Assembly (NCBI GenBank): GCA_051313645.2
Contig: JBNRSN020000018.1
Location: 28,954,001-29,018,000, forward strand
Direction of reading: 5' to 3'
DNA: 64,000 nucleotides
Source of the DNA: Centroscyllium fabricii
Lineage: Eukaryota
The notes under the pieces are model-generated. The model ran no database searches and was not told the DNA's origin. It worked only from the letters and a program-made list of their open reading frames with translations. The position numbers and the translations under genes are program-made. This document shows positions 2,344 to 58,462 of this stretch, piece by piece. How positions within the stretch are numbered: the stretch's first letter is position 1; every line of letters begins with the position of its first letter.

Positions 2344-5202
2344 TTAGCCTCTGATGAGCTCCTGCCCTTCAGCCATTCCCCCCGCCCCCCCAATGCTCCT
2401 CCTTAATGTCACCCCAGTGGGTGCATTAATGCTGGTGGAAGGCTGCGGGGTGTCTGAATTTGACACTGCCACAGCCTTCGAAGGTCGGCCTCGACCAGCT
2501 CTGGGCTCAGAGGGCCCAGCTTCAGACTGCTCCACCTCTGAATGGGCGGCACCAGTCTGGTGTACGGGCGGGGCCAACAGCAGTGGAGAAGTGGGACTGC
2601 TGGCAGCAGCAATTCTGCCCTGGTGCGAGAGGCTAGCACCTCCCTGTTCCACCAATGCAGTCTCACTCCCAGGGGCCCGCGCCTCATCTTCCCCAGCAAT
2701 CTGCTGGAGCACAGATTGCTGGCTTGCTGTGGTGCGTTCAGAACCCAGGATAATGGTGTCCGAAGACAGGACGGCACCAGTCAGCTGACGCATGGCATCA
2801 GTAAGTGGCTGCACAGCAGGACCCACTGACTGCACTGCATCAGTGAGCATCTGTGACGCTTCTGCCTGCACTGCTGCGCAGTGCTCGACACTTTGTGCCA
2901 TGTCCTGCATGGCTTCGGGCAATCCCCCCACCGCCTGCATGAGCTCATTTTGCCGCTGCCCTGCCTTGGCTCACATTTGTGAGAGGACCCGCTCGTCCTC
3001 CGCGGTCAGGCCATCAGGGATCGATGACCCACTCTCCTTCCGGGCAACACGCTTTGGAGCTGCCCTCCCCCCACTCCGTTGCTGCACCCCGCTGGGGCCT
3101 GAACCACCCTGCATGTCCCACCACTCCTCGCTCTCCTCTGTGGATGGCGCCCTCCCCCTGTCGCCATCGCCTTCATCGGCAGATAGTGGCCGTCCTGCTC
3201 CTTCTTCCTCTTCCTCCTCCTGGCCTTCCGACGGCGTCTCCTGCGAAGGTTGAGGGGCCGCCTCCTCAGCTGATGATTGACCGTCTGAAACAACAGAGGT
3301 ACAAGAGTCGGTTTAGCGTGAGGACAAGGTGGCAGCGTGAGGACAATGTGGCAGCGTGAGGACAAGGTGGCAGCGTGAGGACAAGATGGCAGAGTGAGGA
3401 CAAGATGGCAGAGTGAGGACAAGATGGCAGAGTGAGGACAAGATGGCAGAGTGAGGACAAGGTGGAGAGTGAGGACAAGATGGCAGCGTGAGGACAAGGT
3501 GGAGAGTGAGGACAAGGTAGCAGCGTGAGGACAAGGTGGAGAGTGAGGACAAGGTGGAGAGTGAGGACAAGGTGGAGAGTGAGGACAAGGTAGCAGCGTG
3601 AGGACAAGGTGGAGAGTGAGGACAAGGTAGCAGCGTGAGGACAAGGTGGAGAGTGAGGACAAGATGGCAGCATGAGGACAAGGTAGCAGCATGAGGACAA
3701 GGTGGAGAGTGAGGACAAGGTGGAGAGTGAGGACAAGGTGGAGAGTGAGGACAAGGTAGCAGCGTGAGGACAAGGTGGAGAGTGAGGACAAGGTAGTAGA
3801 GTGAGGACAAGGTGGAGAGTGAGGACAAGATGGCAGCGTGAGGACAAGGTGGCAGCATGAGAGCAAGCTGGCAGAGTGAGGACAAGATGGCAGAGTGAGG
3901 ACAAGGTGGAGAGTGAGGACAAGGTAGCAGCGTGAGGACAAGGTGGAGAGTGAGGACAAGATGGCAGAGTGAGGACAAGGTGGAGAGTGAGGACAAGATG
4001 GCAGAGTGAGGACAAGGTGGAGAGTGAGGACAAGATGGCAGAGTGAGGACAAGGTGGAGAGTGAGGACAAGGTGGAGAGTGAGGACAAGGTGGCAGAGTG
4101 AGGACAAGATGGCAGAGTGAGGACAAGGTGGCAGAGTGAGGACATGGTGGCAGCGTGAGGACAAGGTGGAGAGTGAGGACAAGGTGGAGAGTGAGGACAA
4201 GGTGGCAGAGTGAGGACATAGTGGCAGCGTGAGGACAAGGTGGAGAGTGAGGACAAGGTGGCAGAGTGAGGACAAGGTGGAGAGTTAGGACAAGGTGGCA
4301 GAGTGAGGACAAGCTGACAGAGTGAGGACATGGTGGCAGCGTGAGGACAAGGTGGCAGAGTGAGGACAAGGTGGCAGAGTGAGGACAAGCTGGCAGAGTG
4401 AGGACAAGATGGCAGCGTGAAGACAAGGTAGCAGCAAGGGAGCAATGAGTGCAGGCACCGACTTCTTTGGATGGAAAGTGCCAAAGGCAGCTGTTGTGAG
4501 GAGCAAGAGGAAGGAGAGAGGAGAGGAAGGTCATGAACTCACCACTGCTGCCCAGAACGGGGTCGGCATCTCCTGAGCCAACAGGAGCACTCAGGCGGTT
4601 GCCCATTATCCTCTGTACACGCACTTCCAGGGGACTCAGCTCCACCAGATCAGGTGGACCGCCACCCATGCAGTCCTGCTCACATCGGTTGTGAGCCAGT
4701 TTCGCCTGCAAGGAAAAGGACAGAGTCTGAGTTACAAGACAGCAAGTTTTTCATCTGAAGTGCATGCCATGGGTGAATAGCCCTTACTGCATGCAAACTG
4801 TCTTTCAGGAAAAGCCTATGCAAAACCCTGGAGCAACAGGCTGATCAAGGACAGTGACCCTGAGGGACATTAGATTCTGGCTGAGTGTTCTGCATTGGGG
4901 GTTTAGAACCCTCTGGCCATACAGTTACGTTGAGATGGAGAGATACACAAAAATACACTCACCCTGACACCCCTAGTGAGGTCGTTGAATTTTTTTCAGC
5001 ACTGATAGAGGGTCCTGGGCACCACGCTGTGGCTGCTGACATGGTGAGTCACCTCCCTCCACAGTTGCCTGCGCTCCTGTGGCACAGGTTTCCTGCCACT
5101 TGCAGCAAACAAAATGGCTCTGCGGGCCTCCACTATAGTGAGCAGGGCCTTCAAGGCCCTGTCACTAAATCTTTCAGCCCTTTCTCTTGGACGGCTCTCC
5201 AT
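2344..5202 (-). pseudogene. Harbinger ORF2 Myb/SANT-like DNA-binding protein, 3 exons (~5202-4963, 4705-4543, 3284-2344)
   Basis: Exon 1 RAERFSDRALKALL...LWREV...RTLYQC*KKFNDL (Myb/SANT trihelix, in-frame stop); exon 2 GGGPPDLVELSPLE; GTGAGT donors and CAG acceptors; convergent to the transposase as is typical of Harbingers. Confidence 0.8.
3316..4435. repeat. Minisatellite of mixed 18/21-bp units (GTGAGGACAAGGTGGAGA / GTGAGGACAAGRTGGCAGMGT-type) in intron 2 of the Harbinger Myb gene
   Basis: Directly visible tandem units; unit lengths divisible by 3 explain the long repetitive ORFs. Confidence 0.95.
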
Positions 5203-18200: not shown

Positions 18201-18925
18201 TTATGTATGTTCATACAAATCAGGTAATGGAGTGAATGAATAAATGGAACAGTGGAGGCTTTAGGAAAGAGCAGTTACAATATGACTGAGTCTTAAAACT
18301 ATGGGAGATTGAATCAGTTTTATTGGGGGGAAAAAGATTAAGGAACATATATGATCCAAGATTGCTTTTTAAAGTCTGTATGAGAGGTACTTAATGCTGA
18401 ACCTTGAAAAGAGAATCAGAATTGTTGAAATTTCATAGAGAAGGTCGCAATCCTACTTGCAATGCTTGCTTACCAGAGCTATCTTCTCTAATCCCATTTC
18501 CTTGCCATTTCCTGTACCCTTTAGTAAATTTCATCTTCAAGTGCTTATCTAATTCCCTCTTAAATCTTAGTGTTCTCTCTGCTTCCTTTCTGTCATCTAA
18601 TAACCCTTTGTGTGTGATGTATCGTCGATGACTCCAATTAAAAGACGACAAGTAGATACCGAAACTAAAAGGCTTTTAATTGCTAAACAATGGAGCTACT
18701 CTCCAGACGAACAACTTTACAGAACTGGGTGGAGCCCCGGTCAGACCACACCTATATAGAGCCTCACAAGGGGAGGAGTCGGGGGTGTGGCTGACCTGGC
18801 TCCCAACAAGATTACAGTAAACAGGGCTGTGCCCAACATCTGCACAGCCCATAATTAGTCATGGTAATACATTGGAATAACTGTGGAATACAGTGGAATA
18901 GAACGGTTACCACATTCACCCCTTC

Positions 18926-20206
18926 TTAAAAACTTTGAGTCCGGGGGGGTGAATGGATCGAACAGTTCATTATAAGACGGTCCGGCGGTTGTTTCTTCCT
19001 GGAGGACTGTCGGCGCACCGGTGTTGGAGGTGATGCCTCCATGGTTGAATAGTCCGCCTCTGCCGGCGCTGTGACTTCCGGTGGTGGTGTGCTCGTCGGG
19101 TCGCAGTCAGGGAAACTCGGGGGCAATCTTGTGTCTGGTGGGTGAACAACTTGATGGCCGGCGGGTGGTGCTGTCATGGTGTTTCCGGCCGGGGCCAGGT
19201 CCCTGATGGACACGGTGTCCTCACGCCCGTCTGGGAACTGCACGAAGGCGTAGTGCGGGTTGGCGTGTAGTAGCTATACCTTGTCCACCAGGGGGTCCGT
19301 TTTGTGGCTCCGGACGTGTCTCTTAAGTAAAACCGGCCCCGGAGTCGTCAGCCATGGGGGAAGGGCTGTTCCCGAAGTAGACCTCCTGTGGAACGAAAAA
19401 ATGAGATCATGCGGAGTGGCGTTAGTAGCAGTACACAACAGTGATCGGATAGAGTGCAGCGCATCTGGGAGGACTGCCTGCCAATGGGACACTGGAAGGC
19501 CTCTGGACTTGAGAGCCAGGGTGACCGCCTTCCAGATGATCCCATTCTCCCTTTCTACCTGGCCGTTCCCCCGGGGGTTATAACTGGTCGTTCTGCTCGT
19601 GGCAACCCCTCTCTGGAGCAGAAACTGGCGCAGTTCATCGCTCATGAACGATGACCCCCGGTCGCTATGCATGTAGCCGGGGAGACCGAAAATGGCGAAC
19701 AGTGTGGTGAAATGTTTGATCACCGTTGCGCTCGTCATATCTGGGCAGGGGAAAGCGAAGGGGAAGCGGGAGAACTCATCCACTACCGTGAGGAAGTATG
19801 AGTTGCGGTCGGTGGAGGGGAGGGGGCCTTTGAAGTCTACGCTGAGACGTTCAAAGGGGCGGGTGGCCTTGATGAGATGCGTCGTGTCTGGCCGGAAAAA
19901 GTGGGGTTTGCACTCGGCACAGACAGGGCACTCTCTGGTTATATCCTTGATCTCCGTGATGGAGTAGGGGAGGCTACGGGATTTGACAAAATGGGCGAGT
20001 CTGGTGACACCCGGGTGACAAAGGCAGTCGTGGAGGTCCTTCAGCCGGTCTAGCTGGGCACTGGCGCACGTTCCCCTGGACAGTGCGTCTGGGGATTCAT
20101 TGAGTTTACCTGGTCGGTAAAGAATGTCGTACTCGTAAGTCGAGAGTTCGATCCGCCACCGCAGGATCTTATCATTCTTGAATTTACCCCGTAGTTTATT
20201 ATTAAA
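18926..20206 (-). pseudogene. Gypsy pol C-terminal part: end of RNase H plus integrase (in-frame stop at ~19274)
   Basis: NDKILRWRIEL, HDCLCHPG, CPVCAECKP, DFKGPLP, DEFSRFPFAF, HSDRGSSF, NGQVEREN. Confidence 0.9.
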
Positions 20207-20615
20207 TGTAACCCTTTTTACGATTGGCCCCCCCCCTCTCCTTTACTGAGAATGGGGGGTAGGTTAATACCAATTACCCCGTAGGTTCTTAACGTACCCC
20301 ACGTGTAGAACTCTGTGACCTGCACCCAAATGTAACCCTTTTACCTTAAGAGAGATGAATCAGAGACAAAATTTATTATTTACAAACTTTAATAACAGGG
20401 ATGGGAGATAGAGTTCAAACACAAACAGTGTTAAACTAGCAACTGCATACACAAATAGAAAGTAGCATTAATGTCATACAACAAATCACTTACACATTCA
20501 TTCAATTCACAGACACTCCCAAGAACACATTTCAACTGGACATTTACAATGGCAAGGCACTCGCTTTAGCACCCTTACAGCTTGTTCCCCAAGCCCTTTT
20601 CTCAGAAGTACTACT

Positions 20616-21531
20616 CACGACTGTCCGAATAGGGCTTGACAATGAGGACCGTACACTACAGTCTCCTCATCTCAAGGGAGACAACGACGGCTCTTGGATC
20701 TGCCTCTGTCCTTTTAACACGAAAGCTTCCAGCATCTTCCAGCAGTGGGCGTCGCACACAGCTCTCCACCCTCTGCTTCCTGCAACCTCGTCTTCCCCAA
20801 GCCCCTCTCCCGGTAGCCGCCACCCACGACTGTCCGAACAGGGCTTGGCAATGAGTACCGTACACAACAGCCTACTCATCCCAAGGGAAACAACGACGGC
20901 TCTTGGGACTGTCTCTCAGTCCTTTTAACACGAAAGCCTCCAGCCTCTTCCAGCAATGGGCGTCGCACACAGCTCTCCACCCTCTGCTTCCTGCAACCTC
21001 GTCTTCCCCAAGCCCTTCTCTCAGTAGCCGCCACCCACGACTGTCCGAACAGGGCTTGGCAATGAGTACAGCCTACTCATCCCAAGGGAAACAACGACGG
21101 CTCTTGGGACTGTCTCTCAGTCCTTTTAACACGAAAGCCTCCAGCATCTTCCAGCAATGGGCGTCGCACACAGCTCTCCACCCTCTGCTTCCTGCAACCT
21201 CGTCTTCCCCAAGCCCTTCTCTCAGTAGCCGCCACCCACGACTGTCCGAACAGGGCTTGGCAATGAGTACAGCCTACTCATCCCAAGGGAAACAACGACG
21301 GCTCTTGGGACTGTCTCTCAGTCCTTTTAACACGAAAGCCTCCAGCATCTTCCAGCAATGGGCGTCGCACACAGCTCTCCACCCTCTGCTTCCTGCAACC
21401 TCGTCTTCCCCAAGCCCTTCTCTCAGTAAGTGCTACTCACGACTGTCCAAATAGGGCTCGACGATGAGGACCGTACACTACAGCCTCCTCATCCCCAGGG
21501 AGATAACGACGGCTCTTGGAACTGCCTCTCT
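20616..21531. repeat. Tandem array of ~201-211 bp units (4 full + 1 partial) in the 3' LTR
   Basis: Units begin CACGACTGTCC at 20616, 20825, 21036, 21237 and 21438. Confidence 0.93.
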
Positions 21532-22456
21532 CATGGCTTCTCTGGATCTTTCCCGGATCTTCTCTCCATCTAACCTCCTGCTCAATCTTCTCCCTTCTCT
21601 CCAGCTCAATCTTACTCCTTCTCTCCAGCTCAATCTTACTCCTTCTGGATCTAACTAACTGTCTCTAGGCGTGTCCAGCCTTTTATCCTGTCCTGGCTCC
21701 ACCCTCCAGCAACTCACCCCACTTTTAGCCAGCCTATCGCAAAGCAATCACACAGCCCCCACCTGCAAGACCCCTTGTTTTTCCAGACTGCCCGGAGCCG
21801 AGTGCTGGTTTCCATGGCAGCCCAGCCTATCTGAAACATTGTCCATTCTCACACCTGGTCAACAACCCCATGTGATCTGAACTTCCAGACAAACTGGCAC
21901 CGAAGAGGTCACCTGACCTCAGACCACTGGATCCCTAGATTTTTAACCCTTTAGGGAGATTCTCCCTGACTCTGGGTTTCAGACCCAGGTTACACTCCCC
22001 CCTTACCAAACCTAGTCATGTCCTCATGACTACACCACAAAGTAACCGTGCTCACGTCCATCTCTCTCTCGGCAACAATGGGTTCACTCCACTAGGGTAT
22101 GAAACTGGAAGTCACAGTATCCCGAAGACGAGCCCCCAAATGTAACCCTTTTTACGATTGGCCCCCCCCCTCTCCTTTACTGAGAATGGGGGGTAGGTTA
22201 ATACCAATTACCCCGTAGGTTCTTAACGTACCCCACGTGTAGAACTCTGTGACCTCCACCCAAATGTAACCCTTTTACCTTAAGAGAGATGAATCAGAGA
22301 CAAAATTTATTATTTACAAACTTTAATAACAGGGATGGGAGATAGAGTTCAAACACAAACAGTGTTAAACTAGCAACTGCATACACAAATAGAAAGTAGC
22401 ATTAATGTCATACAACAAATCACTTACACATTCATTCAATTCACAGACACTCCCAA

Positions 22457-22684
22457 GAACACACTTCAATCAGAACTTTACAATGGCAAGGCACTCGCTT
22501 TAGCACCCTTCCAGAACACATTTCAATCAGAACTTTACAATGGCAAGGCACTCGCTTTAGCACCCTTACAGAACACATTTCAATCAGAACTTTACAATGG
22601 CAAGGCACTCGCTTTAGCACCCTTACAGAACACATTTCAACTGGACATTTACAATGGCAAGGCACTCGCTTTAGCACCCTTACA
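22457..22684. repeat. Four tandem 57-bp units in the 5' LTR (single unit in the 3' LTR)
   Basis: GAACACATTTCAATCAGAACTTTACAATGGCAAGGCACTCGCTTTAGCACCCTTACA x4; LTR length difference 171 = 3 x 57. Confidence 0.93.
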
Positions 22685-22720
22685 GCTTGTTCCCCAAGCC
22701 CTTTTCTCAGAAGTACTACT

Positions 22721-23636
22721 CACGACTGTCCGAATAGGGCTTGACAATGAGGACCGTACACTACAGTCTCCTCATCTCAAGGGAGACAACGACGGCTCTT
22801 GGATCTGCCTCTGTCCTTTTAACACGAAAGCTTCCAGCATCTTCCAGCAGTGGGCGTCGCACACAGCTCTCCACCCTCTGCTTCCTGCAACCTCGTCTTC
22901 CCCAAGCCCCTCTCCCGGTAGCCGCCACCCACGACTGTCCGAACAGGGCTTGGCAATGAGTACCGTACACAACAGCCTACTCATCCCAAGGGAAACAACG
23001 ACGGCTCTTGGGACTGTCTCTCAGTCCTTTTAACACGAAAGCCTCCAGCCTCTTCCAGCAATGGGCGTCGCACACAGCTCTCCACCCTCTGCTTCCTGCA
23101 ACCTCGTCTTCCCCAAGCCCTTCTCTCAGTAGCCGCCACCCACGACTGTCCGAACAGGGCTTGGCAATGAGTACAGCCTACTCATCCCAAGGGAAACAAC
23201 GACGGCTCTTGGGACTGTCTCTCAGTCCTTTTAACACGAAAGCCTCCAGCATCTTCCAGCAATGGGCGTCGCACACAGCTCTCCACCCTCTGCTTCCTGC
23301 AACCTCGTCTTCCCCAAGCCCTTCTCTCAGTAGCCGCCACCCACGACTGTCCGAACAGGGCTTGGCAATGAGTACAGCCTACTCATCCCAAGGGAAACAA
23401 CGACGGCTCTTGGGACTGTCTCTCAGTCCTTTTAACACGAAAGCCTCCAGCATCTTCCAGCAATGGGCGTCGCACACAGCTCTCCACCCTCTGCTTCCTG
23501 CAACCTCGTCTTCCCCAAGCCCTTCTCTCAGTAAGTGCTACTCACGACTGTCCAAATAGGGCTCGACGATGAGGACCGTACACTACAGCCTCCTCATCCC
23601 CAGGGAGATAACGACGGCTCTTGGAACTGCCTCTCT
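22721..23636. repeat. Same ~200-bp unit array in the 5' LTR
   Basis: Matches 20616-21531 at an offset of 2105. Confidence 0.93.
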
Positions 23637-24099
23637 CATGGCTTCTCTGGATCTTTCCCGGATCTTCTCTCCATCTAACCTCCTGCTCAATCTTCTCCCT
23701 TCTCTCCAGCTCAATCTTACTCCTTCTCTCCAGCTCAATCTTACTCCTTCTGGATCTAACTAACTGTCTCTAGGCGTGTCCAGCCTTTTATCCTGTCCTG
23801 GCTCCACCCTCCAGCAACTCACCCCACTTTTAGCCAGCCTATCGCAAAGCAATCACACAGCCCCCACCTGCAAGACCCCTTGTTTTTCCAGACTGCCCGG
23901 AGCCGAGTGCTGGTTTCCATGGCAGCCCAGCCTATCTGAAACATTGTCCATTCTCACACCTGGTCAACAACCCCATGTGATCTGAACTTCCAGACAAACT
24001 GGCACCGAAGAGGTCACCTGACCTCAGACCACTGGATCCCTAGATTTTTAACCCTTTAGGGAGATTCTCCCTGACTCTGGGTTTCAGACCCAGGTTACA

Positions 24100-26425
24100 T
24101 AAACATAAACGCCACCGACCATTGGTCGGTGAGCAGGGTAAAACGCTTACCGGCCAGGTAATGACGCCAGTCGCGCACGGCCTCCACAATGGCCTGAGCC
24201 TCCTTTTCCACTGCAGAGTGGCGAGTCTTGGGTCCCTGTAGGGTGCGGGAGAAAAACGCTACGGGCCTGCCTGCCTGATTCAGGGTGGCAGCAAGGGCAA
24301 AGTCCGAAGCGTCGCTCTCCACCTGGAAGGGAATGGATTCATCAACAGCGAGCATGGTCGCCTTGACGATGTCTTCCTTTATCCTTGCAAAAGCCGTCTG
24401 GGCTTCTGCAGAAAGGGGGAAGGCGGCAGCCTTGAGAAGTGGTCTAGCCTTATCTGCGAACTGTGGGACCCATTGTGCATAATAGGAGAAAAATCCTTGG
24501 CATCTCCTCAAGGCTTTGGGGTTGTGAGGTAGGGGCAGTTCTTGCAGGGGTCGCATACGCTGTGGGTCGGGGCCGAGGAGCCCGTTCTCCACCACGTATC
24601 CGAGAATGGCGAGCCGGGTTGTATTAAAGACACATTTGTCTTTGTTATACGTAAGGTCCAGCTTGTCCGCCGTGGCGAGGATTTTGGCCAGATTGGCATC
24701 GTGGTCCTGCTGGTCGTGGCCGCAGATGGTCACGTTGTCCAGGTAAGGGAAGGTGGCCTGCAAGTCATTCTGGTCAACCATACGGTCCATCTCCCATTGG
24801 AACACGGACACTCCATTGGTCACGCCAAAGGGGACCCGGAGGAAGTGGTAGAGCCGACCGTTCGCCTCGAAGGCGGTGTAGGGGCGGTCGGCTTTCCAAA
24901 TCGGGAGCTGATGATACGCCGATTTAAGGTCGATCGTAGAGAACACCTTGTACTGGCCGATCTGATTGACCATGTCTGAGATGCGGGGAAGGGGGTAGGC
25001 GTCGAGCCCGGTGTAGCGGTTGATAGTCTGGCTGTAATCGATCACCAGCCGTTGTTTCTCGCCAGACTTCACCACCACAACTTGGGCGCGCCAGGGGCTG
25101 GTGCTGGCTTCAATTATTCCCTCCTTTAGCATCCGCCCGACCTCCGACCTGATAAACGTGCGATCCCCCTCACTGTACCGCCGACTCTTAGTGGAAATGG
25201 GCTTGCACTTGGGATCGAGGTTGGCGAACAGCGAGGGGGGGTCGATTTTCAGGGTGGAGAGGCCGCAGGCCGGGCTCCGCTTTGGGGGGGAATTGTCCCT
25301 GCTACTGACGGTGAGTGACGGTAAGGTCCCGCCGAACTCCACTGTCACACTCTGGAAGTGGCACTGGAAATCCAAACCTAGTAAGGCTGGGGCACACAAC
25401 TGTTGGAGGGTATACAATCTAAAATTACGGTACACGCGCCCCTTGATGGTGAGCGTGACGGAGCAGTAGCCGGTGATGTCCGCGGTGTGGGACTGTGAAG
25501 CTAGGGAGATTTGGTAGTTGGTGGGCAGGATCTGCAGTCCGCAGCGCCGCACTGTATCCGGGTGGATGAAACTCTCCGTGCTGCCTGTGTCGAAAAGACA
25601 GTCAACAGTATGGTTGTTAATCTTTATAGGTATTATTGAGTTAGACAGGGTATGAGGCCTGCCCTGGCTAACTCTGATTTTAGCTGCAGCAGCAGCCCCT
25701 GCTGGTCGGGGCTGTGCACAAGATGGCCTTGCCCCAAAACAAAATGGCGTCGTCCCTGCCCCGCACAGAGAGGGGCACTCGTGACAAAATGGTGTCGCCC
25801 CTGGCCCGCAGCTCGTGGAACCCCGTACATCTGATGACGTCGCCCCAAAACAAAATGGCGCCGTCCCTGCCCCGCGCAGGGAGGGGCCCTTGAAGCAAAA
25901 TGGCGCCACCCCTGGCCCGCAGCTCGCGGAACCCCGTACATCTGATGACGTCGCCCCAAAACAAAATGCCGCCGTCCCTGCCCCGCACAGGGAGGGGCCC
26001 TTGAAGCAAAATGGCGCCGCCCCTGGCCCGCAGCTCGCGGAACCCCGTACATCTGATGACGTCGCCCCTGCCCTGCACGTGGAGGAGCCCTTGGTATAGG
26101 GAGACATCGCCCCTGGCCCGCAGCTCGTGGAACCCCGTACATCTGATGACGTCACCCCAGCCCCGCACGTGGAGGAGCCCTTGGTATTAGGAGATGTCGC
26201 CCCTGGCCCGCAGCTCGAGGGACCCCGTGCATAAGATGGCGCCGTCCTTGGCCCGCATATGGAGGGGCTCTGTCTCTGGCGTGGAGCCTCTGAAGGGCCC
26301 TGTGAACGCGCTGGCGGCGCCCGTGATTCGCACGCAGCAGACCGCGGTGGTCGGGTTAGCGGTGCCCGTGATTCGCACGCAGCCGGCCGCGTTGGGGGGT
26401 CGCGCTTGGCCGGCCTTCTCTGCAT
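24100..26425 (-). CDS. Gypsy pol N-terminal part (repeat linker, protease, RT, RNase H), interrupted by the nested element
   Basis: CLFDTGSTESF protease; RLVIDYSQTIN, FSTIDLKSAYHQ, VPFGVTNG, PYLDNVTICG RT; ESDASDFALAA, EKEAQAIVEAV RNase H. Confidence 0.9.
25730..26255. repeat. In-frame tandem repeats (~66-120 bp) between gag and protease
   Basis: Repeated peptides GATSSDVRGSASCGPG and APFCFKGPSLCGAG; repeated CAAAATGGCG and GATGACGTC on +. Confidence 0.85.
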
Positions 26426-27330
26426 CAGGTAAGAAGGGGTGGGGGCGCTCGTTGTCTACCCCCGTACCGTCGCTGGATCGCGCTGCTAATGCATCTTACC
26501 TGGTTGGTGCTCTCACAGGCTGCACTGTTGTACCTTCTGCTAGGCGCTGGTGGAGATGCTGCTGGAGCTGACTTGCAGACCCTAGCGAAGTGCCCCTTCT
26601 TCGAGCATTTTTCACAGCTCGCTGTCCTGGCTGGACATTTCGCTCTAGGGTGCAGTCCTTGGCCGCAGAAGTAACAGTGCTTATTTTTAATGTCTTTAGT
26701 GACCGTCGCGGCCATCGTGGGGGCCTCGGCCCGTGGCGCCCAGGCCTGGGCCTGTTGTGGCGCGGCCCATATGTTGTAGGCTTGCGGGTTTGTGCCGCTG
26801 TACGCCTGTAACTTGCTACGGGCCCCCTCTACCGATTTGGCTAACTTGGTCGCCTCCTCGAGGGTCAAATTGTCTCTCTCAAGTAGCCGCTGATGGGCTT
26901 CTACACACCTCAGTCCTGTGACGTAAGCTTCCCGAATGAGGAGTTCTTCCTCCTCTGCAATAGTGGTACCTTTGCAGCCACAGGCCCGTACCAGGGCCAG
27001 GAGCGCTTGCTCAAACTCCTCGTTTGACTCACCCGGTAGCTGGGATCGGGTCGCCAGCACGTGTCGGGCGTAGACAGAGTGGACCGGGCATTCGTAGCAT
27101 TTCTTCAGGACTTCTACGGTTTTTTCGTAGGTTGGGGCGTTCATGACGAGGGTGAATACCCTGCTGGAGATCCTAGATCTCAGGACATGTAGCTTGTCCT
27201 TGTCCGAAGTAGCCTTGGCGGCTTCCGTGTAGGCCTCCAGTAGGCCGAACCAGTGTTTGAAGGTAGCGGGAGCAGCCGCGTCCTGGGGACTGATGTCCAG
27301 CTTCTCAGGCTTTACCGTGCTGCAATCCAT
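26425..27330 (-). CDS. Gypsy gag with two zinc knuckles
   Basis: KPEKLDISP...FKHW; YARHVLATRSQLPGES; CYFCGQGLHPRAKC and CEKCSKKGHFARVC. Confidence 0.9.
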   Translation of the reverse strand: MDCSTVKPEKLDISPQDAAAPATFKHWFGLLEAYTEAAKATSDKDKLHVLRSRISSRVFTLVMNAPTYEKTVEVLKKCYECPVHSVYARHVLATRSQLPGESNEEFEQALLALVRACGCKGTTIAEEEELLIREAYVTGLRCVEAHQRLLERDNLTLEEATKLAKSVEGARSKLQAYSGTNPQAYNIWAAPQQAQAWAPRAEAPTMAATVTKDIKNKHCYFCGQGLHPRAKCPARTASCEKCSKKGHFARVCKSAPAASPPAPSRRYNSAACESTNQVRCISSAIQRRYGGRQRAPPPLLT

Positions 27331-28019
27331 TTTAACTTTTAGCAATTAAAATTGATGTATCGTCGATGACTCCAATTAAAAGACGACAAGTAGATACCGA
27401 AACTAAAAGGCTTTTAATTGCTAAACAATGGAGCTACTCTCCAGATGAACAACTGTACAGAACTGGGTGGAGCCCCGGTCAGACCACACCTATATAGAGC
27501 CTCACAAGGGGAGGAGTCGGGGGTGTGGCTGACCTGGCTCCCAACAAGATTACAGTAAACAGGGCTGTGCCCAACATCTGCACAGCCCATAATTAGTCAT
27601 GGTAATACATTGGAATAACTGTGGAATACAGTGGAATAGAACGGTTACCACAGTGTGAAAATATTTCTTCTAAACTCCCTCTTGATGTCTCATGAACCAA
27701 TTCTAAAGTAATAAAGCCCATGAATCAGAAATAGTTTTCTATTGATAATAAAAACAGAAAATATATGTATGATAGGGGCTGGGGTTATGATCTGAAATTG
27801 TTGAACTCTATGTTGAGTCCAGAAGGCTGTAAAGTGCCTAATCGTTTTCTATTGTCCTGGCACTGCCAACCCTTATATGCATGAGTTGCACGTACAAAAT
27901 TAGTAAACACTGACAAAACGTCAGAGCACTACAAGGAAACAATGGATCATGTTGGTGCCCTTGTGAGGTCCACAGTGGCTTTCAAAGGTTGCTTTTTAAG
28001 TTCCGTACACCTTACAGAC

Positions 28020-40895: not shown

Positions 40896-41541
40896 TGAAA
40901 GTGTTTAGTAAGCCATTAAAACATGGACACACTCCCAAAGAACCCCCCTGCAATCATTGACACTCCCAGAGACCCCTGCAAACACTGACACTCCCAGAGA
41001 CCCCTGCAAACACTGACACTCCCAGAGACCCCTGCAAACACTAACACTCCCAGAGACCCCTGCAAACACTGACACTCCCAGAGACCCCTGCAAACACTGA
41101 CACTCCCAGAGACCCCCTGCAAAAACTGACACTCCCAGAGACCCCCTGCAAAAACTGACACTCCCAGAGACCCCCTGCAAACACTGACACTCCCAGAGAC
41201 CCCCTGCAAAAACTGACACTCCCAGAGACTCCCTGCAAACACTGACACTCCCAGAGACCCCCTGCAAACACTGACACTCCCAGAGACCCCCTGCAAAAAT
41301 TGACAGTCCCAGAGACCCCCCTGTAAACACTGACATGCCCAGAGACCCCCTGCAAACACTGACACTCCCAGAGACCCCCTGCAAACACTGACACTCCCAG
41401 CGACCCCCTGCAAAAACTGACACTCCCAGAGACCCCCCTGTAAACACTGACATGCCCAGAGACACCCCTGCGAACATTTACACTCCCAGTGACCCCCTGT
41501 AAACACTGACACTCTGCCAGAGACCCCCCTGCAAACACTGA

Positions 41542-42321
41542 GGCGTCAATTTTCCCATAGGTGCGGGCAATTGGTGGGTTTCGGGCAGGTCAGGGAGGCC
41601 CATGCAATTTTGGCTCAATTGGCCAATTAATTCCCTGCATGCGGGAACCCCTGCAAATTGACTGATTTCAGACAGAAAGCCAGCGGGGTTCCCATTGTGT
41701 AACCACCAGAGCCCTTGATTAACAAGTCTAAGTAGTTTGGATTGCTTGTATCTGTTGACTGAGTGCTTTGTGATGTCATAAAGCCCTGGAACCACAAGCC
41801 CTTGATTGACAAGTCTCAGTAGTTTTGATTGCTTGTATCCTCTTGACAGCTAGGGAAGACCTATCTGTCAATCAATGGAAATCAGCTGTAAGGTGAGTTT
41901 TTGAAAGGTTTTTTCCCACTGATCTGTTTCACCCTAGGGATACAGTTAGTCCCAATGCAGGCTGGAGCCCTGGGATGGCTTCTGCTGCAGCTGCTTGAAT
42001 GATAGTCAGGAAGTCACTAGTGTCCCTGCCAGGTTTCACCAGCGGGGTTTGAGACTGTTGGGTTATAGGAGGGAAATGCTTCAAAATCATGGGGGGCCCT
42101 TAAAATGACATTATACATGCCAATTAGAGGTCCCTAATGAGCCTAATGACCATCCCCACTGGCCGCTGGTGGGAAAGATTCGGGATGGCTTGACATGGCG
42201 GTGGGAAATCGCAAAGCAGTGGGAATCCAGCGAGGGGGGGGTGTCGGGATCCCCCGTTTTTTGTATTTTATGACCATTCCCGCTGAAAAGCCTGCCTCAC
42301 GGCTCACTGAAAGTTGATGCC
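41542..42321. mobile_element. Harbinger-type MITE inserted in the minisatellite; TSD TGA
   Basis: TIRs GGCGTCAATTTTC / GAAAGTTGATGCC; perfect 3-bp TSD at 41539-41541 and 42322-42324; related to 62155-62946. Confidence 0.85.
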
Positions 42322-43564
42322 TGACACTCTCCCAGAGACCCCCCCTGCGAACACTGACACTCCCAGAGACCCCCTGCGAACACTGACACACCCAGAGACC
42401 CACTGCAAACACTGACACATTCCCAGAGACCCCCTGCAAATACTGCCACTCCCAGAGACCCCCGCGAACATTGACACTCCCAGAGACCTCTGCAAACACT
42501 GACCCACTCCCAGAGACCCTCCTGCAAACACTGACACTCCCCCAAAGACCCACTGAAAACACTGACACTCCTCGAGACCCCCTGCAAACACTGACACTCC
42601 CATAGACCCCCCTGCAAACACTGACACTCTCCCAGAGACCCCTATACACTCTGACACTCCCAGAGACCCCCCTGTAAACACTGACACTCCCAGAGAGGCT
42701 CCTGCAAACATTGACACTCCCAGCGACCCCCCTGTAAACACTGACACTCCCCCAGAGACCCTCTGCAAACACTGACACTCTCCCAGAGACCCCGTGCGAA
42801 CATTGACACTCCCAGAGACCCCCCTGTAAACTCTGACACTCCCATAGACCCTCCTGCAAACACTGACACTCCCCCAGAGACCCCGTGCGAACATTGACAC
42901 TCCCAGAGACCCCCGCTGTAAACTCTGACACTCCCATAGACCCCCCTGCAAATGCTGACACTCTCCCAGAGACCTCTGTAAACTCTGACACTCCCCCAGA
43001 GACCCCTGCAAACATTGACACTCTCCCAGAGCCCCCTGTAAACTCTGACACTCCCCCAGAGACCCCCTGCGAACACTGACACTCCCAGAGACCCCCTGCA
43101 AACACTGACACTCCTAGAGACCCCTGTAAACTCTGACACTCTCCCAGAGACGCCCTGCAAACACTGACACTCCCCCAGAGACCTCCCTGTAAACTCTGAC
43201 ACTCCCCCAGAGACTCCCTGCGAACACTGACACTCCCCCAGAGACCCCCCTGTAAACTCTGACACTCCCCCAGAGACCCCCTGCGAACACTGACACTCCC
43301 AGAGACCCCATGTAAAGACTGACACTCCCCCAGAGATCCCCTGTGAACACTGACACTCCCAGAGACGCCTGTAAACACTGACACTCTCCCAGAGATCCCC
43401 TGCGAACACTGACACTCCTAGAGACCCCTGTAAACTCTGACACTCTCCCAGAGACGCCCTGCGAACACTGACACTCCCAGAGACCCCCTGTAAACACTGA
43501 CACTCCCCCAGAGATCCCCTGCGAACACTGACACTCCCAGAGACCCCTGCAAACATTGACACTC

Positions 43565-43685
43565 AATTCAATTCAATTCAATTCAAGTTGCTTTATTGGC
43601 ATGACAAGATACATCCTATGTTGCCAAAGCACAGAAAAAGAACATATACAGTTGGACATACAAATGCATAACCAGACGTATTGAA
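43565..43685 (-). mobile_element. Short 3' end of a (TTGAA)n-tailed LINE, distinct from the Rex1 UTR
   Basis: CATGCCAATAAAGC plus TTGAA repeats on -; flanked by TGACACTC on both sides. Confidence 0.7.
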
Positions 43686-45304
43686 TGACACTCTCCCAGA
43701 GACCCCCTGTAAACACTGACACTCCCCAGAGACCCCCTGTAAACACTGACACTCCCTGGACACCCCCTGTAAACATTGACACTCTCCCAGGGACCCTCTG
43801 CAAACACTGACACTTCCAGAGACCCCCCTGTAAACTCTGACACTCCCATAGACCCTCCTGCAAACATTGACACTCCCATAGACCCCCTGTAAACACTGAC
43901 ACTCTCCCAGAGACCCCCCTGTAAACACTGACACTCTCCCAGAGACCCCCTGCAAACATTGACACTCCGAGACCCCCCTGCAAACACTGACACTCCGAGA
44001 CCCCCCTGCAAACACTGACACTCCGAGACCCCCCTGCAAACACTGACACTCCCCCAGAGACCCCCCTGCAAACATTGACACTCTCCCAGGGACCTCACTG
44101 TAAACACTGACAATCCCCCAGAGACCCCCCTGTAAACACTGACACTTCCAGAGACCCCCTGCGAACACTGACACTCCCCAGAGACCCCCCTGCAAACATT
44201 GACACTCCCAGGGTATTTTATTATCATACAGCAACTCAAAATAATGTGCTAGGAAAGCAACAAAAATAGCATCGATGCATTTAAGCGTGAGCTCGATAAA
44301 CACAGGAATGAGGAAGGAATAGAGGAATATGCTGATAGGGTGAGATGAAGTAGGGTGGGAGGATCGTGTGGAGCCTAAACTCCGGTATGGACCAGTTGGG
44401 CTGAATGGTCAGTTTCTGTGCTGCACATTCTAGACAATTCGACATAAAATAGAAGACAATCGGGAATTTTTGATGGACCGTGCTGGTGGATTGCAGTCTG
44501 CCTGGCCTCAGATGGAGTGGAATCAGTTTGAAAAGCTCTGCTGTGACGCGATTGCCAAACAAGTCATAGGAAATTTTGTCAGTCGCCTATTTGCAACATT
44601 TTGAATACGTGACAGCTATGGGCCGATTTCCATCATTGTCCTACCTTGCATTGATCCTGGTAATGATCAGCCTCTTGCCTGTATTTGCTACCCAGCTGTT
44701 GTTTAAATAAATAAAGTAAATATTGCCGCTAAATGGATCAGCACTCTGACTCGAATAAGTTTTGTGGAGAACGATTAGATCACTGATGCCTAACGGCACT
44801 ATCAATGATCCAGATAATAGCAGAATTGATGACTGGTACAATGATGCTAATTAGTTCAACAGCCAATTTATTAAAACTGGGCTCGGACTCTCTCTCTCTC
44901 ATAATACCCATCAGAGCTGTTCATTTGCACAGCTGACTTACATTGAAATTTTGGCACAATTACATGGCAACTGAGCCAGGTGCTGATGGTGAAAGTTCTG
45001 GAAACCGGTTAAAACGAGGGCCATTGATGCCTCTAACTAGTATTATTGCTGTCAGTTTTCTCACTCTCGTAACAGTGGAGTCTGCCTCTCTGCATTGTGT
45101 GTAAACTACTTGATAAAGAAGGTATTCGATGCCTTGCCGCCCCCATTAACACCAGCGATGTGGTTGGAACCATTTTGAAAACACTGCTGCCTGTATCCTA
45201 ACTCACACCAAGTCCTGTTCACCCACCAGTCCCTGTGCTCCCGGTCCGGAATTGTCTTGATTTTTAAAATCGCCATCTTTGTGTTCAAATTTCTCTACAG
45301 CCTA

Positions 45305-57678: not shown

Positions 57679-58462
57679 CAGGTACACAACCCTTTATCCG
57701 AAAACCTCCGGACCGGGCGGGTTTCGGTTTTCGGATAAATACGGTTTTTAGAGTTGGCCACAGTGCGCATGCGCAGATCGCAATCGCATGCGCAATTCCG
57801 TGTTTGCAGTCCAGCTCGCAGTCGGGTAACGGCATATCGGCCGTTTGCAGGGGGAGATCGGCCGTTTGCAGGGGGAGATTGGCCGTTTGCAGGAGGAGAT
57901 CGACCGTTTGGAGCGGGAGATCGGCCGTTTGGAGCGGGAGATCAGCCGTTTGCAGGGGGAGATCGGCCGTTTGCAGCGGGAGATCGGCCGTTTGCAGGGG
58001 GAGATCGGCCGTTTGGAGCGGGAGATCAGCCGTTTGCAGGGGGAGATCGGCCGTTTGCAGCGGGAGATCGGCCGTTTGCAGGAGGAGATCGACCGTTTGG
58101 AGCGGGAGATCGGCCGTTTGCAGCGGGAGATCGGCCGTTTGCAGGAGGAGATCGACCGTTTGCAGGGGGAGATCGGCCGTGTGCAGTGGGAGATCGGCCG
58201 TGTGCAGTGGGAGATCGGCCGTTTGCTGAAGGAGATTGGCCGTTTGCAGGGGGAGATCGGCCGTTTGCAGGGGGAGATCGGCCGTTTGGAGCAGGAGATC
58301 GGCCGGTTTTTTCCACAGCACGGCATCAACAGCATGAGATCGGGGGAGGAATGTGTTTTTTCTGCTGCAGCTTCAATTTATTTAAGAAAAAAATTATTTC
58401 AGAAAAGCTTTTCGGTTTTTGGAGCTTTTCGGTTTTGTTGCGGATAAGGGACTGTGTACCTG
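57679..58462. mobile_element. Tc1/mariner-pogo-type MITE (TA TSD) carrying a 21-bp tandem array
   Basis: TIRs CAGGTACACAACCCTTTATCCG / CGGATAAGGGACTGTGTACCTG flanked by TA on both sides. Confidence 0.85.
57834..58305. repeat. About 22 copies of a 21-bp unit GGGAGATCGGCCGTTTGCAGG
   Basis: Directly visible; no length variants seen. Confidence 0.95.

Follow-up and report, generated by a model that had tools for sequence, protein, structure and literature searches.

The LTRs of a non-autonomous retrotransposon in Centroscyllium fabricii carry a tandem array of units of about 200 nt, each predicted to fold into a three-way junction accompanied by a hairpin, within what is likely to be a very long R region. 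Our preferred interpretation, to which we would give about an even chance of being right, is that these stem-loops aid strand transfer during reverse transcription, and that the units multiply when transfer occurs out of register. The analysis concerns a stretch of 64,000 nt (the window; contig JBNRSN020000018.1, positions 28,954,001 to 29,018,000 of the forward strand, numbered here from its first letter) together with related copies in the rest of the genome.

Structure of the element and its array

The element occupies 20207..24099 (3,893 bp, or 3.9 kb) and, like all of the features of it listed below, reads on the minus strand. It has TG...CA ends and is flanked by a 4-bp target duplication, TTTA, at 20203-20206 and 24100-24103. 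The 5′ LTR (22141..24099; 1959 bp) contains five units and four copies of a 57-mer, the 3′ LTR (20207..21994; 1788 bp) contains five units and a single 57-mer, and the two are apart by one substitution and one indel. Between them lies an interior of 146 bp (21995..22140) that retains a primer-binding site at 22127-22138, presumably of the tRNA-Pro type, the first codons of the gag gene of the parent described below (ATG near 22061), and a polypurine tract at 21995-22005. This interior was identical at all 40 places scored in the genome. The form of the primer site found in the window is exact in at least 40 copies, and the genome has another form 451 times.

The insertion interrupts a host Gypsy element of another family (18615..27652, minus strand), which is split within RNase H such that PR-RT-RH and IN domains flank the newcomer; the LTRs of the host are 99% identical. 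The host has a 5-bp target duplication, and its gag-pol junction (25731-26265) contains 45/90/111-bp tandem repeats. Minisatellites of 19/37, 29-31 and 21 bp are also present in the window, at 3318-4434, 40929-44211 and 57836-58305.

A preliminary description of this DNA had reported a tandem array of roughly 200-nt units in the LTR. We find it at 20585-21542, with a period of 201-211 nt and five modules on the minus strand, and an identical five-unit array, absent from that description, is present in the 5′ LTR at 22680..23620. As laid out along the LTR, five copies of a 110-120-nt module, designated A, are separated by four copies of a spacer hairpin, designated B. Unit 1 (21396..21515), of the first type, is predicted to form a three-way junction; units 2 and 3 (21195..21304 and 20994..21103) are of an inner type with a 10-nt deletion, unit 4 (20783..20902) is an inner type of full length, and unit 5 (20575..20693) is of the last type. 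The copies of hairpin B, at 21354-21391, 21153-21190, 20952-20989 and 20741-20778, are predicted with pair probabilities of 0.91-0.99. The 10-nt indel between units had been assigned to a hairpin loop; the indel itself is real, and it extends beyond the loop, removing the upper stem between two GTAC words.

Tandem amplification is not peculiar to the structured module, since pieces of 24, 35, 57 and 67 nt, located in the span from the TATA box to the ATTAAA signal considered below, have been tandemly amplified beside the ~200-nt unit. Hairpin B (~67 nt) and a 35-nt piece with a perfect 6-pair hairpin show independent amplification in sister copies (L031, L065, L109, L111; L033, L048, L050, L053, L108). 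The LTR end is duplicated inside the window's own LTR, with a second copy at 20331 (region 20207-20345), and an inverted repeat in the last 110 nt of the LTR has been tightened in one lineage (P 0.017-0.025).

Family and parent element

In the 7.2-Gb genome the LTR start was matched 3,698 times and the module or unit 7,894 times, against 0 for control queries. LTR sizes in the family range from 1.1 to 2.1 kb. Nearly all LTR pairs differ by 0-5 substitutions, so the family, judged by this divergence, is very young. A search for more distant families by way of the primer site led to two places in the genome.

When the rarest unit type was used as a query, parent elements of 6.44 kb were recovered. 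Their gag encodes 474 aa with PNMA and zinc-knuckle (CCHC) domains, and their pol encodes 1251 aa in the order RT, RNase H, integrase. Protease is visible as a DTG motif alone, without a Pfam hit, and no env candidate, in the form of a frame of at least 100 aa, lies between pol and the 3′ LTR. The parent has the structural features of Ty3/Gypsy elements, namely TG...CA LTRs, a primer site, a polypurine tract and 4-bp target duplications. It is a PNMA-gag Gypsy retrotransposon, and the element in the window is its internal-deletion derivative. An endogenous retrovirus, which had been our first guess from the primer site, was dropped as a candidate, given that the gag and pol of the parent are those of a Gypsy element.

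In the LTR of the parent a single unit follows a 330-nt segment (X), and one unit is likewise found in 11 of 12 gag-bearing LTRs. To describe the family more broadly, 98 LTRs were classed, the first at each locus, with loci chosen by interior, primer site, IGF1 or unit and hence not at random. All 98 carry between one and six units, such that the module is missing from none. X is kept in 33 of these LTRs, 32 of which have one unit, and is absent from the other 65, every one of which has 2-6 units.

Retention of the module in 98 of 98 LTRs, together with its multiplication and tightening mainly in gene-less elements, would also be expected of a Gag-binding, dimerisation, export or stability element that multiplied as parasites competed with the parent for Gag or export. 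Three-way junctions are common protein-binding folds. We nevertheless judge this to be quite unlikely. The module would sit on solo-LTR and 5′-LTR-terminated RNAs too, and if it lies in R, as argued below, its presence at both RNA ends would make it a poorer packaging mark than the leader that follows the primer site and is retained by the mini-element. It is also without a conserved loop or a self-complementary loop, and mini-elements with a single unit are common (20 of 66).

Some loci show more elaborate arrangements. At L071+L072 and at L073, four or five LTRs of differing types lie within one target duplication, the first and last being of the same type. L155 and L156 contain gag-pol-bearing elements in tandem, whose LTRs have IGF1 and 3-4 units, and at L155 both gag (474 aa) and pol (1271 aa) are open. 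In the flanks of L031-L090, target sites may often read as alternating purine-pyrimidine (TATA, CATA, TGCA, CGCA).

Position of the array within the LTR

The array had been placed between a TATA-like sequence and AATAAA/ATTAAA. This is borne out for the TATA-like GGATAAAAGG (21679..21688, with a second copy at 23784-23793), a putative promoter on the strength of motif conservation, and for ATTAAA (20387..20396, with a second copy at 22321-22330), a putative polyadenylation signal on the same grounds; AATAAA is not conserved. Across the family, GGATAAAAG is kept in 78 of 81 LTRs and a 15-mer containing ATTAAA in 79 of 81. Measured from the start of the LTR to the position immediately behind the TATA box, the stretch that would correspond to U3 is 317-320 nt in 79 of 80 LTRs, and the stretch behind ATTAAA measures 179-196 nt. 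A repetitive insertion of 137 nt in the U3 of L095 is the sole exception to constant U3 length among the 80. Variation in LTR length resides in the span from TATA to ATTAAA, which extends over 636-1620 nt and takes 59 different lengths in 78 LTRs.

A fixed U3 combined with a variable span that contains tandem pieces is the pattern expected of R, which is present twice per RNA and open to mis-registered jumps. The span is thus likely to represent an R region of 0.6-1.6 kb, and the earlier proposal of a very long R gains support from motif conservation and from the length pattern. In sister LTRs, the frame of an IGF1 insert described below begins about 70 nt behind the TATA box without an ATG before it, and this position suggests that the region is transcribed; the transcription start would be located just behind the TATA box. 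Fixing the borders of U3, R and U5 takes RNA data (PMC3601003).

A different assignment would place the array in U3 as a repeated DNA enhancer and give the role of true promoter to TATTTAAA, a second TATA-like word that is found just upstream of ATTAAA, close to the LTR's 3′ end, in 61 of 80 LTRs. Such an arrangement agrees with the R lengths of only 11-150 nt in the retroviruses tabulated in PMC3601003. We consider it improbable, as TATTTAAA is lost in 10 of 80 LTRs, including the window's copy, whereas the upstream TATA is kept in nearly all. In addition, the IGF1 frame lies behind the upstream TATA, and the sequence of the array turns over fast while pairing is kept.

Predicted fold of the unit

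We used RNAalifold on an alignment of 66 distinct natural units, comprising 63 of the 70 listed and three first-type units. The consensus is a three-way junction in which a stem of 13-17 pairs (P2) and one of about 17-20 pairs (P3) are joined, and on this prediction each unit consists of the junction plus a hairpin. The stems YCAAGCCCU/RGGGCUUGG, UUCGG/CYGRG and AUGAGKA/UMCUCAU, proposed at the outset from the window's copy, are present and are 94-99% paired over the 66 natural units. Two registers fit the alignment, with strand YCAAG common to both; 95.5% and 97.8% of cells are paired, as compared with 40-54% in slid controls. The unit counts and the fold predicted over natural units both support the idea of an amplified, undescribed structured RNA module.

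The fold differs in several respects from the one first sketched. The long stem thought to close each unit does form in the prediction, mainly as a local hairpin inside the unit (pair probabilities of 0.96, 0.53, 0.64, 0.22 and 0.91 in the five units), and cross-unit pairing of this stem, at 0.26-0.39, is restricted to inner units. When the whole putative R is folded, P3 closes mostly inside each unit. The suggested hairpin GGACUG/CAGUCC is predicted unevenly, with pair probabilities from 0.19 to 0.91, and CCCAAG/CUUGGG is not predicted at all (0.00).

With respect to stability, a 301-nt piece is more stable than its shuffles (z -3.04, with 0 of 100 shuffles as good), as the earlier proposal required; the value for the whole array, z -5.59 against 20 shuffles, owes part of its size to repetition and was discounted. 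By the same model, single units are modestly stable on the minus strand (z -0.92, -1.94, -1.58 and -2.17) and about equally so on the plus strand (-1.84, -1.47, -0.84 and -2.47), and parent units do not exceed their shuffles in stability (z -0.57 and +0.77). An energy gap between strands runs along most of the G-rich LTR. The minus-strand specificity originally claimed is therefore weak, with some support from the variant counts reported in the next section.

Covariation and direction of change

The hairpin that alternates between AUGAGUA/UACUCAU and AUGAGGA/UCCUCAU had been interpreted as a compensatory change. The G-C/U-A switch is real, with the two pairs present in 25 and 25 of 66 rows. 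Autonomous-type units carry U.C at this position (6 of 66 rows), and the pairs are for this reason best read as two one-step changes from the parent's mismatch. A second pair (G-C, A-U) derives from G.U in the parent type, and two pairs, at columns 31/49 and 24/57, have each been tightened in two different ways. Double-change cells beat all 500 shuffles in rows that are close kin, and pairs with changes on both sides were no more numerous in the 66-unit alignment than under a column shuffle (171 and 94 of 500). The covariation reported for this module is weaker than it appears, being drawn from one family and few independent events, with a mismatch as the starting point.

At places where mini-elements show Watson-Crick pairs, the two parent-type lineages both contain mismatches or wobbles, and by parsimony the loose state is taken as ancestral. 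With the older parent-type unit as reference, P2 shows 12 recurrent changes, of which 8 replace a mismatch or wobble by Watson-Crick pairing (a share of 0.14 was expected; P about 5e-5, with the structure chosen on the same sequences) and 2 break a pair. Of 20 changes in P3, 2 disrupt pairing, against an expected share of 0.32-0.41 (P 0.003-0.024), 5 lead to G.U and 11 occur in unpaired places. Under a structure-free null with matched substitution types, all seven mini-element units are more stable than expected (P 0.013-0.043), these units being kin rather than independent and the region having been picked for looking folded. The same null gives P 0.82 for the young parent unit; of 24 tests on other parts of the LTR, two fell below 0.05, and both of these concern the U5 end. 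The gain in stability shown by last-type units is equally strong on the plus strand (P 0.013-0.017).

A wider survey covered variants in 461 modules from 87 loci. Recurrent stem variants maintain pairing in 19 of 31 cases on the minus strand and 11 of 31 on the plus strand, and singleton variants do so in 5 of 10; the P value against the recurrent-versus-singleton background is 0.0003-0.056, depending on transition bias. Two common variants break P3 (in 14 and 16 of 87 loci), and either upper stem can be deleted, the hairpin deletions being bounded by short direct repeats. No segment of the LTR changes faster than the module, which has 38 derived alleles in 103 columns as compared with 12 in 278 for U3, a rate inflated by the larger number of module copies per LTR. 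ADAR editing was considered as a source of A-to-G changes and was set aside as not specific: A>G accounts for 10 of 38 changes in the module, and also for 4 of 12 within U3 and 7 of the 27 that precede the poly(A) signal.

Taken together, the tightening of P2 and the rarity of breaks in P3 lend modest support to a real RNA structure, and on our preferred reading the tightening would reflect selection. A reading without any selected function deserves close comparison, although we find it less likely. It holds that template-switch mutation in the course of copying perfected inverted repeats that had been imperfect, and that the unit was amplified as one among several pieces of R prone to recombination. 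According to PMC8794818, template switching is able to fix pairing in existing stems. It predicts repair from either arm, conversion of wobbles to Watson-Crick pairs and strand symmetry, all of which are seen in P2, and it is consistent with the deletions between direct repeats in hairpins and with the duplication of the 24-, 35-, 57- and 67-nt pieces and the LTR end. In contrast, a DNA-level process does not predict that P3 should tolerate G.U and avoid breaks, or that pairing variants should favour the minus strand by 19 to 11. Also against it is the loss of the module from 0 of 98 LTRs while X was lost from 65. Template switching without selection would fit the changes in P2 well and those in P3 less well.

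Ribozyme and small-RNA candidates

The size of the module, its three-way junction and its tandem arrangement are features that might be expected of a new self-cleaving ribozyme or small-RNA precursor in a retrozyme-like element, and multimeric elements do occur. Both had been put forward at the outset, and both now appear highly improbable. Inspection by eye had disclosed no exact ribozyme core, and our searches concur. Using the core words of the hammerhead, twister and other ribozymes, we found no hammerhead CUGANGA on either strand and one twister-like word on the plus strand, without the rest of the motif. An Rfam search at E<=10 gave five chance-level hits, none of them a ribozyme (twister, pistol, hatchet, HDV and hairpin included), miRNA, tRNA or 5S family, and ARAGORN reported 0 tRNA genes. 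The rapid change of the module, the absence of an Rfam family and the lack of a hammerhead core all argue against a ribozyme; the junction letters vary among units, and several cuts per LTR would destroy R. A typical microRNA precursor is an unbranched stem of about 35 pairs. Here the stems are branched and have the 13-17 (P2) and about 17-20 (P3) pairs given above, lengths that make a small-RNA precursor unlikely.

A spliced IGF1 copy in sister LTRs

Sister LTRs carry a cargo that is absent from the window's copy. A spliced IGF1 junction gave 143 genome matches in sister LTRs, with 61 places among the first 100 matches listed. IGF1-bearing copies were examined at L042:1423-1761, L043, L071-L090 and L155-L174, and the native gene at L091 and L151. 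The 112-codon frame behind the TATA box was recognized in 2 of the first 40 sister loci. It consists of a signal peptide, the B-C-A-D domains and a short new tail, contains an insulin-family domain, and has IGF-I as its best PDB match (E 1e-39). All 68 frames that were read are open, 67 of them 112 aa and one 110 aa in length.

The native IGF1 gene was found once, as an exon ending at a GT donor and a next exon about 24 kb away on the same contig, and the cargo is identical to these exons at 155/159 and 163/172 bases. Because two native exons so far apart are joined in the copies, the cargo is an intron-free, spliced copy of host IGF1 fused to the element, as in LTR-mediated retrocopies. At the 3′ junction the IGF1 exon end resembles module B. 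The 5′ junction has a 15/16 match to an upstream donor site, which is weak (E 1.1), followed by 28 further nt. In two DNA-like runs from one study the insert is present as a single 356-nt contig with 0 differences from the copy it was compared with, at depths of 1147 and 727 that are uncalibrated against single copy, and one of the runs may be the assembly's own source. Its presence at depth in both runs indicates that the insert is not an assembly artefact. In runs X5 and X6, which have other organism labels, LTR pieces with the array are present and the IGF1 part is left uncovered.

The insert is found in LTRs that keep X as well as in those that lack it, alongside 1-5 units, and in mini, solo and gag-pol-bearing elements, demonstrating free recombination across the region behind the TATA box. 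The substitutions in the IGF1 copies do not demonstrate selection. In the mature peptide, four synonymous and zero amino-acid differences are fixed relative to the native gene (37 copies); the synonymous changes may belong to the native lineage, and 7 of the 8 variable positions among the 68 copies change the protein.

A mobile promoter has multiplied the growth-factor gene within it more than a hundredfold, which raises a further reading that we think unlikely. The family would still be spreading, and its LTR would serve as an expression cassette, with secretable IGF-1 produced from about 143 LTR promoters and the hairpin array as 3′ UTR; a growth advantage in the germ line or embryo would spread the element, and the hairpin module would be selected in parasites. 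If true, this would parallel, in a retrotransposon, the way in which acutely transforming retroviruses capture oncogenes. Expression of the copies would change IGF-1 dosage, and the cargo would make IGF1 counts too high in genomic and transcriptomic studies of C. fabricii.

A strand-transfer model

Hairpins in retroviral R are established as sites where reverse transcriptase pauses and jumps. In our preferred reading the module has an analogous role, argued from its position in R. At hairpins towards the 3′ part of a long R, the enzyme would pause and jump, and strand transfer would thereby be aided. Non-autonomous elements would borrow the enzymes of the parent, and tighter and more numerous hairpins would favour such elements. 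Slips in register during transfer would change the number of units, and the same jumping could give rise to the tandem copies of five different pieces, the reshuffling of modules and the uptake of IGF1 mRNA where R begins. A point against this reading is that the multi-unit LTRs may all descend from one event. With thousands of young copies, a loose parent with a single unit and tighter derivatives with up to six, the family constitutes a natural experiment in which selection and template-switch mutation can be tested directly against one another as the source of 'compensatory' pairs.

Comparison with known systems

Stem-loops are familiar features of retroviral R regions and include TAR, the poly(A) hairpin and the HTLV RxRE. 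Like these, the module lies between a TATA box and a poly(A) signal and would be present at both RNA ends. It differs in having no sequence or model match to them, in a putative R that is ten times longer, in its variable unit number, and in a parent without a trans-activator gene. LTR retrozymes are non-autonomous too and have a structured RNA module in both LTRs; in the present family there is no hammerhead, and the modules number 1-6 per LTR. Conservation in long R regions has been linked to stem-loops (PMC3601003). A structured RNA module in each LTR of a non-autonomous element is likewise described for Cassandra, Helenus and Ajax (TRIMp3, PMC10886601), from which our elements differ in lacking tRNA or 5S sequence and in having 1-6 modules per LTR.

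A Gag of PNMA type has been tied to Gypsy12_DR (PMC3789554). The parent resembles the Gypsy12_DR-related elements of that account, by description rather than by sequence, in its Gag with PNMA_N, PNMA and CCHC domains, its RT-RH-IN pol and its lack of env; as far as the account goes, a structured LTR module is not described there. In a literature search reaching few subscription journals and neither supplements nor repeat libraries such as Repbase, we came across no description of the module or of a growth-factor reading frame that had been amplified within an LTR, and a search on repeats and structure in retrotransposon R regions likewise gave none.

Earlier accounts such as PMC4717578 and PMC5131818 already describe non-autonomous LTR elements, tandem arrays of them, and the capture of mRNA through template switching. 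TRIMs, as described by Gao et al. 2016 (PMC4717578), share with our element the two LTRs, a short gene-less interior with primer site and polypurine tract, and a target duplication, as well as tandem LTR-interior-LTR arrays, an autonomous partner and occasional intron-free gene cargo. Most TRIMs in that account are <1 kb, whereas the present element is 3.9 kb long with LTRs of 1.1-2.1 kb and a vertebrate Gypsy parent; its cargo and repeats are inside the LTR instead of the interior, and its arrays can mix LTR types. It works like a TRIM and is larger than a miniature element. The LTR-mediated retrocopies of Tan et al. 2016 (PMC5131818) similarly comprise spliced, partial mRNA without a poly(A) tail and further rounds of copying, and their short shared sequence at the 3′ junction may have its counterpart in the resemblance of the IGF1 exon end to module B. 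Those retrocopies replace internal genes and are described at low copy number (1-5 for Bs1), whereas IGF1 lies inside the LTR, behind its TATA box, doubles at every insertion, has reached 143 places, and is also carried by a copy in which gag and pol are open.
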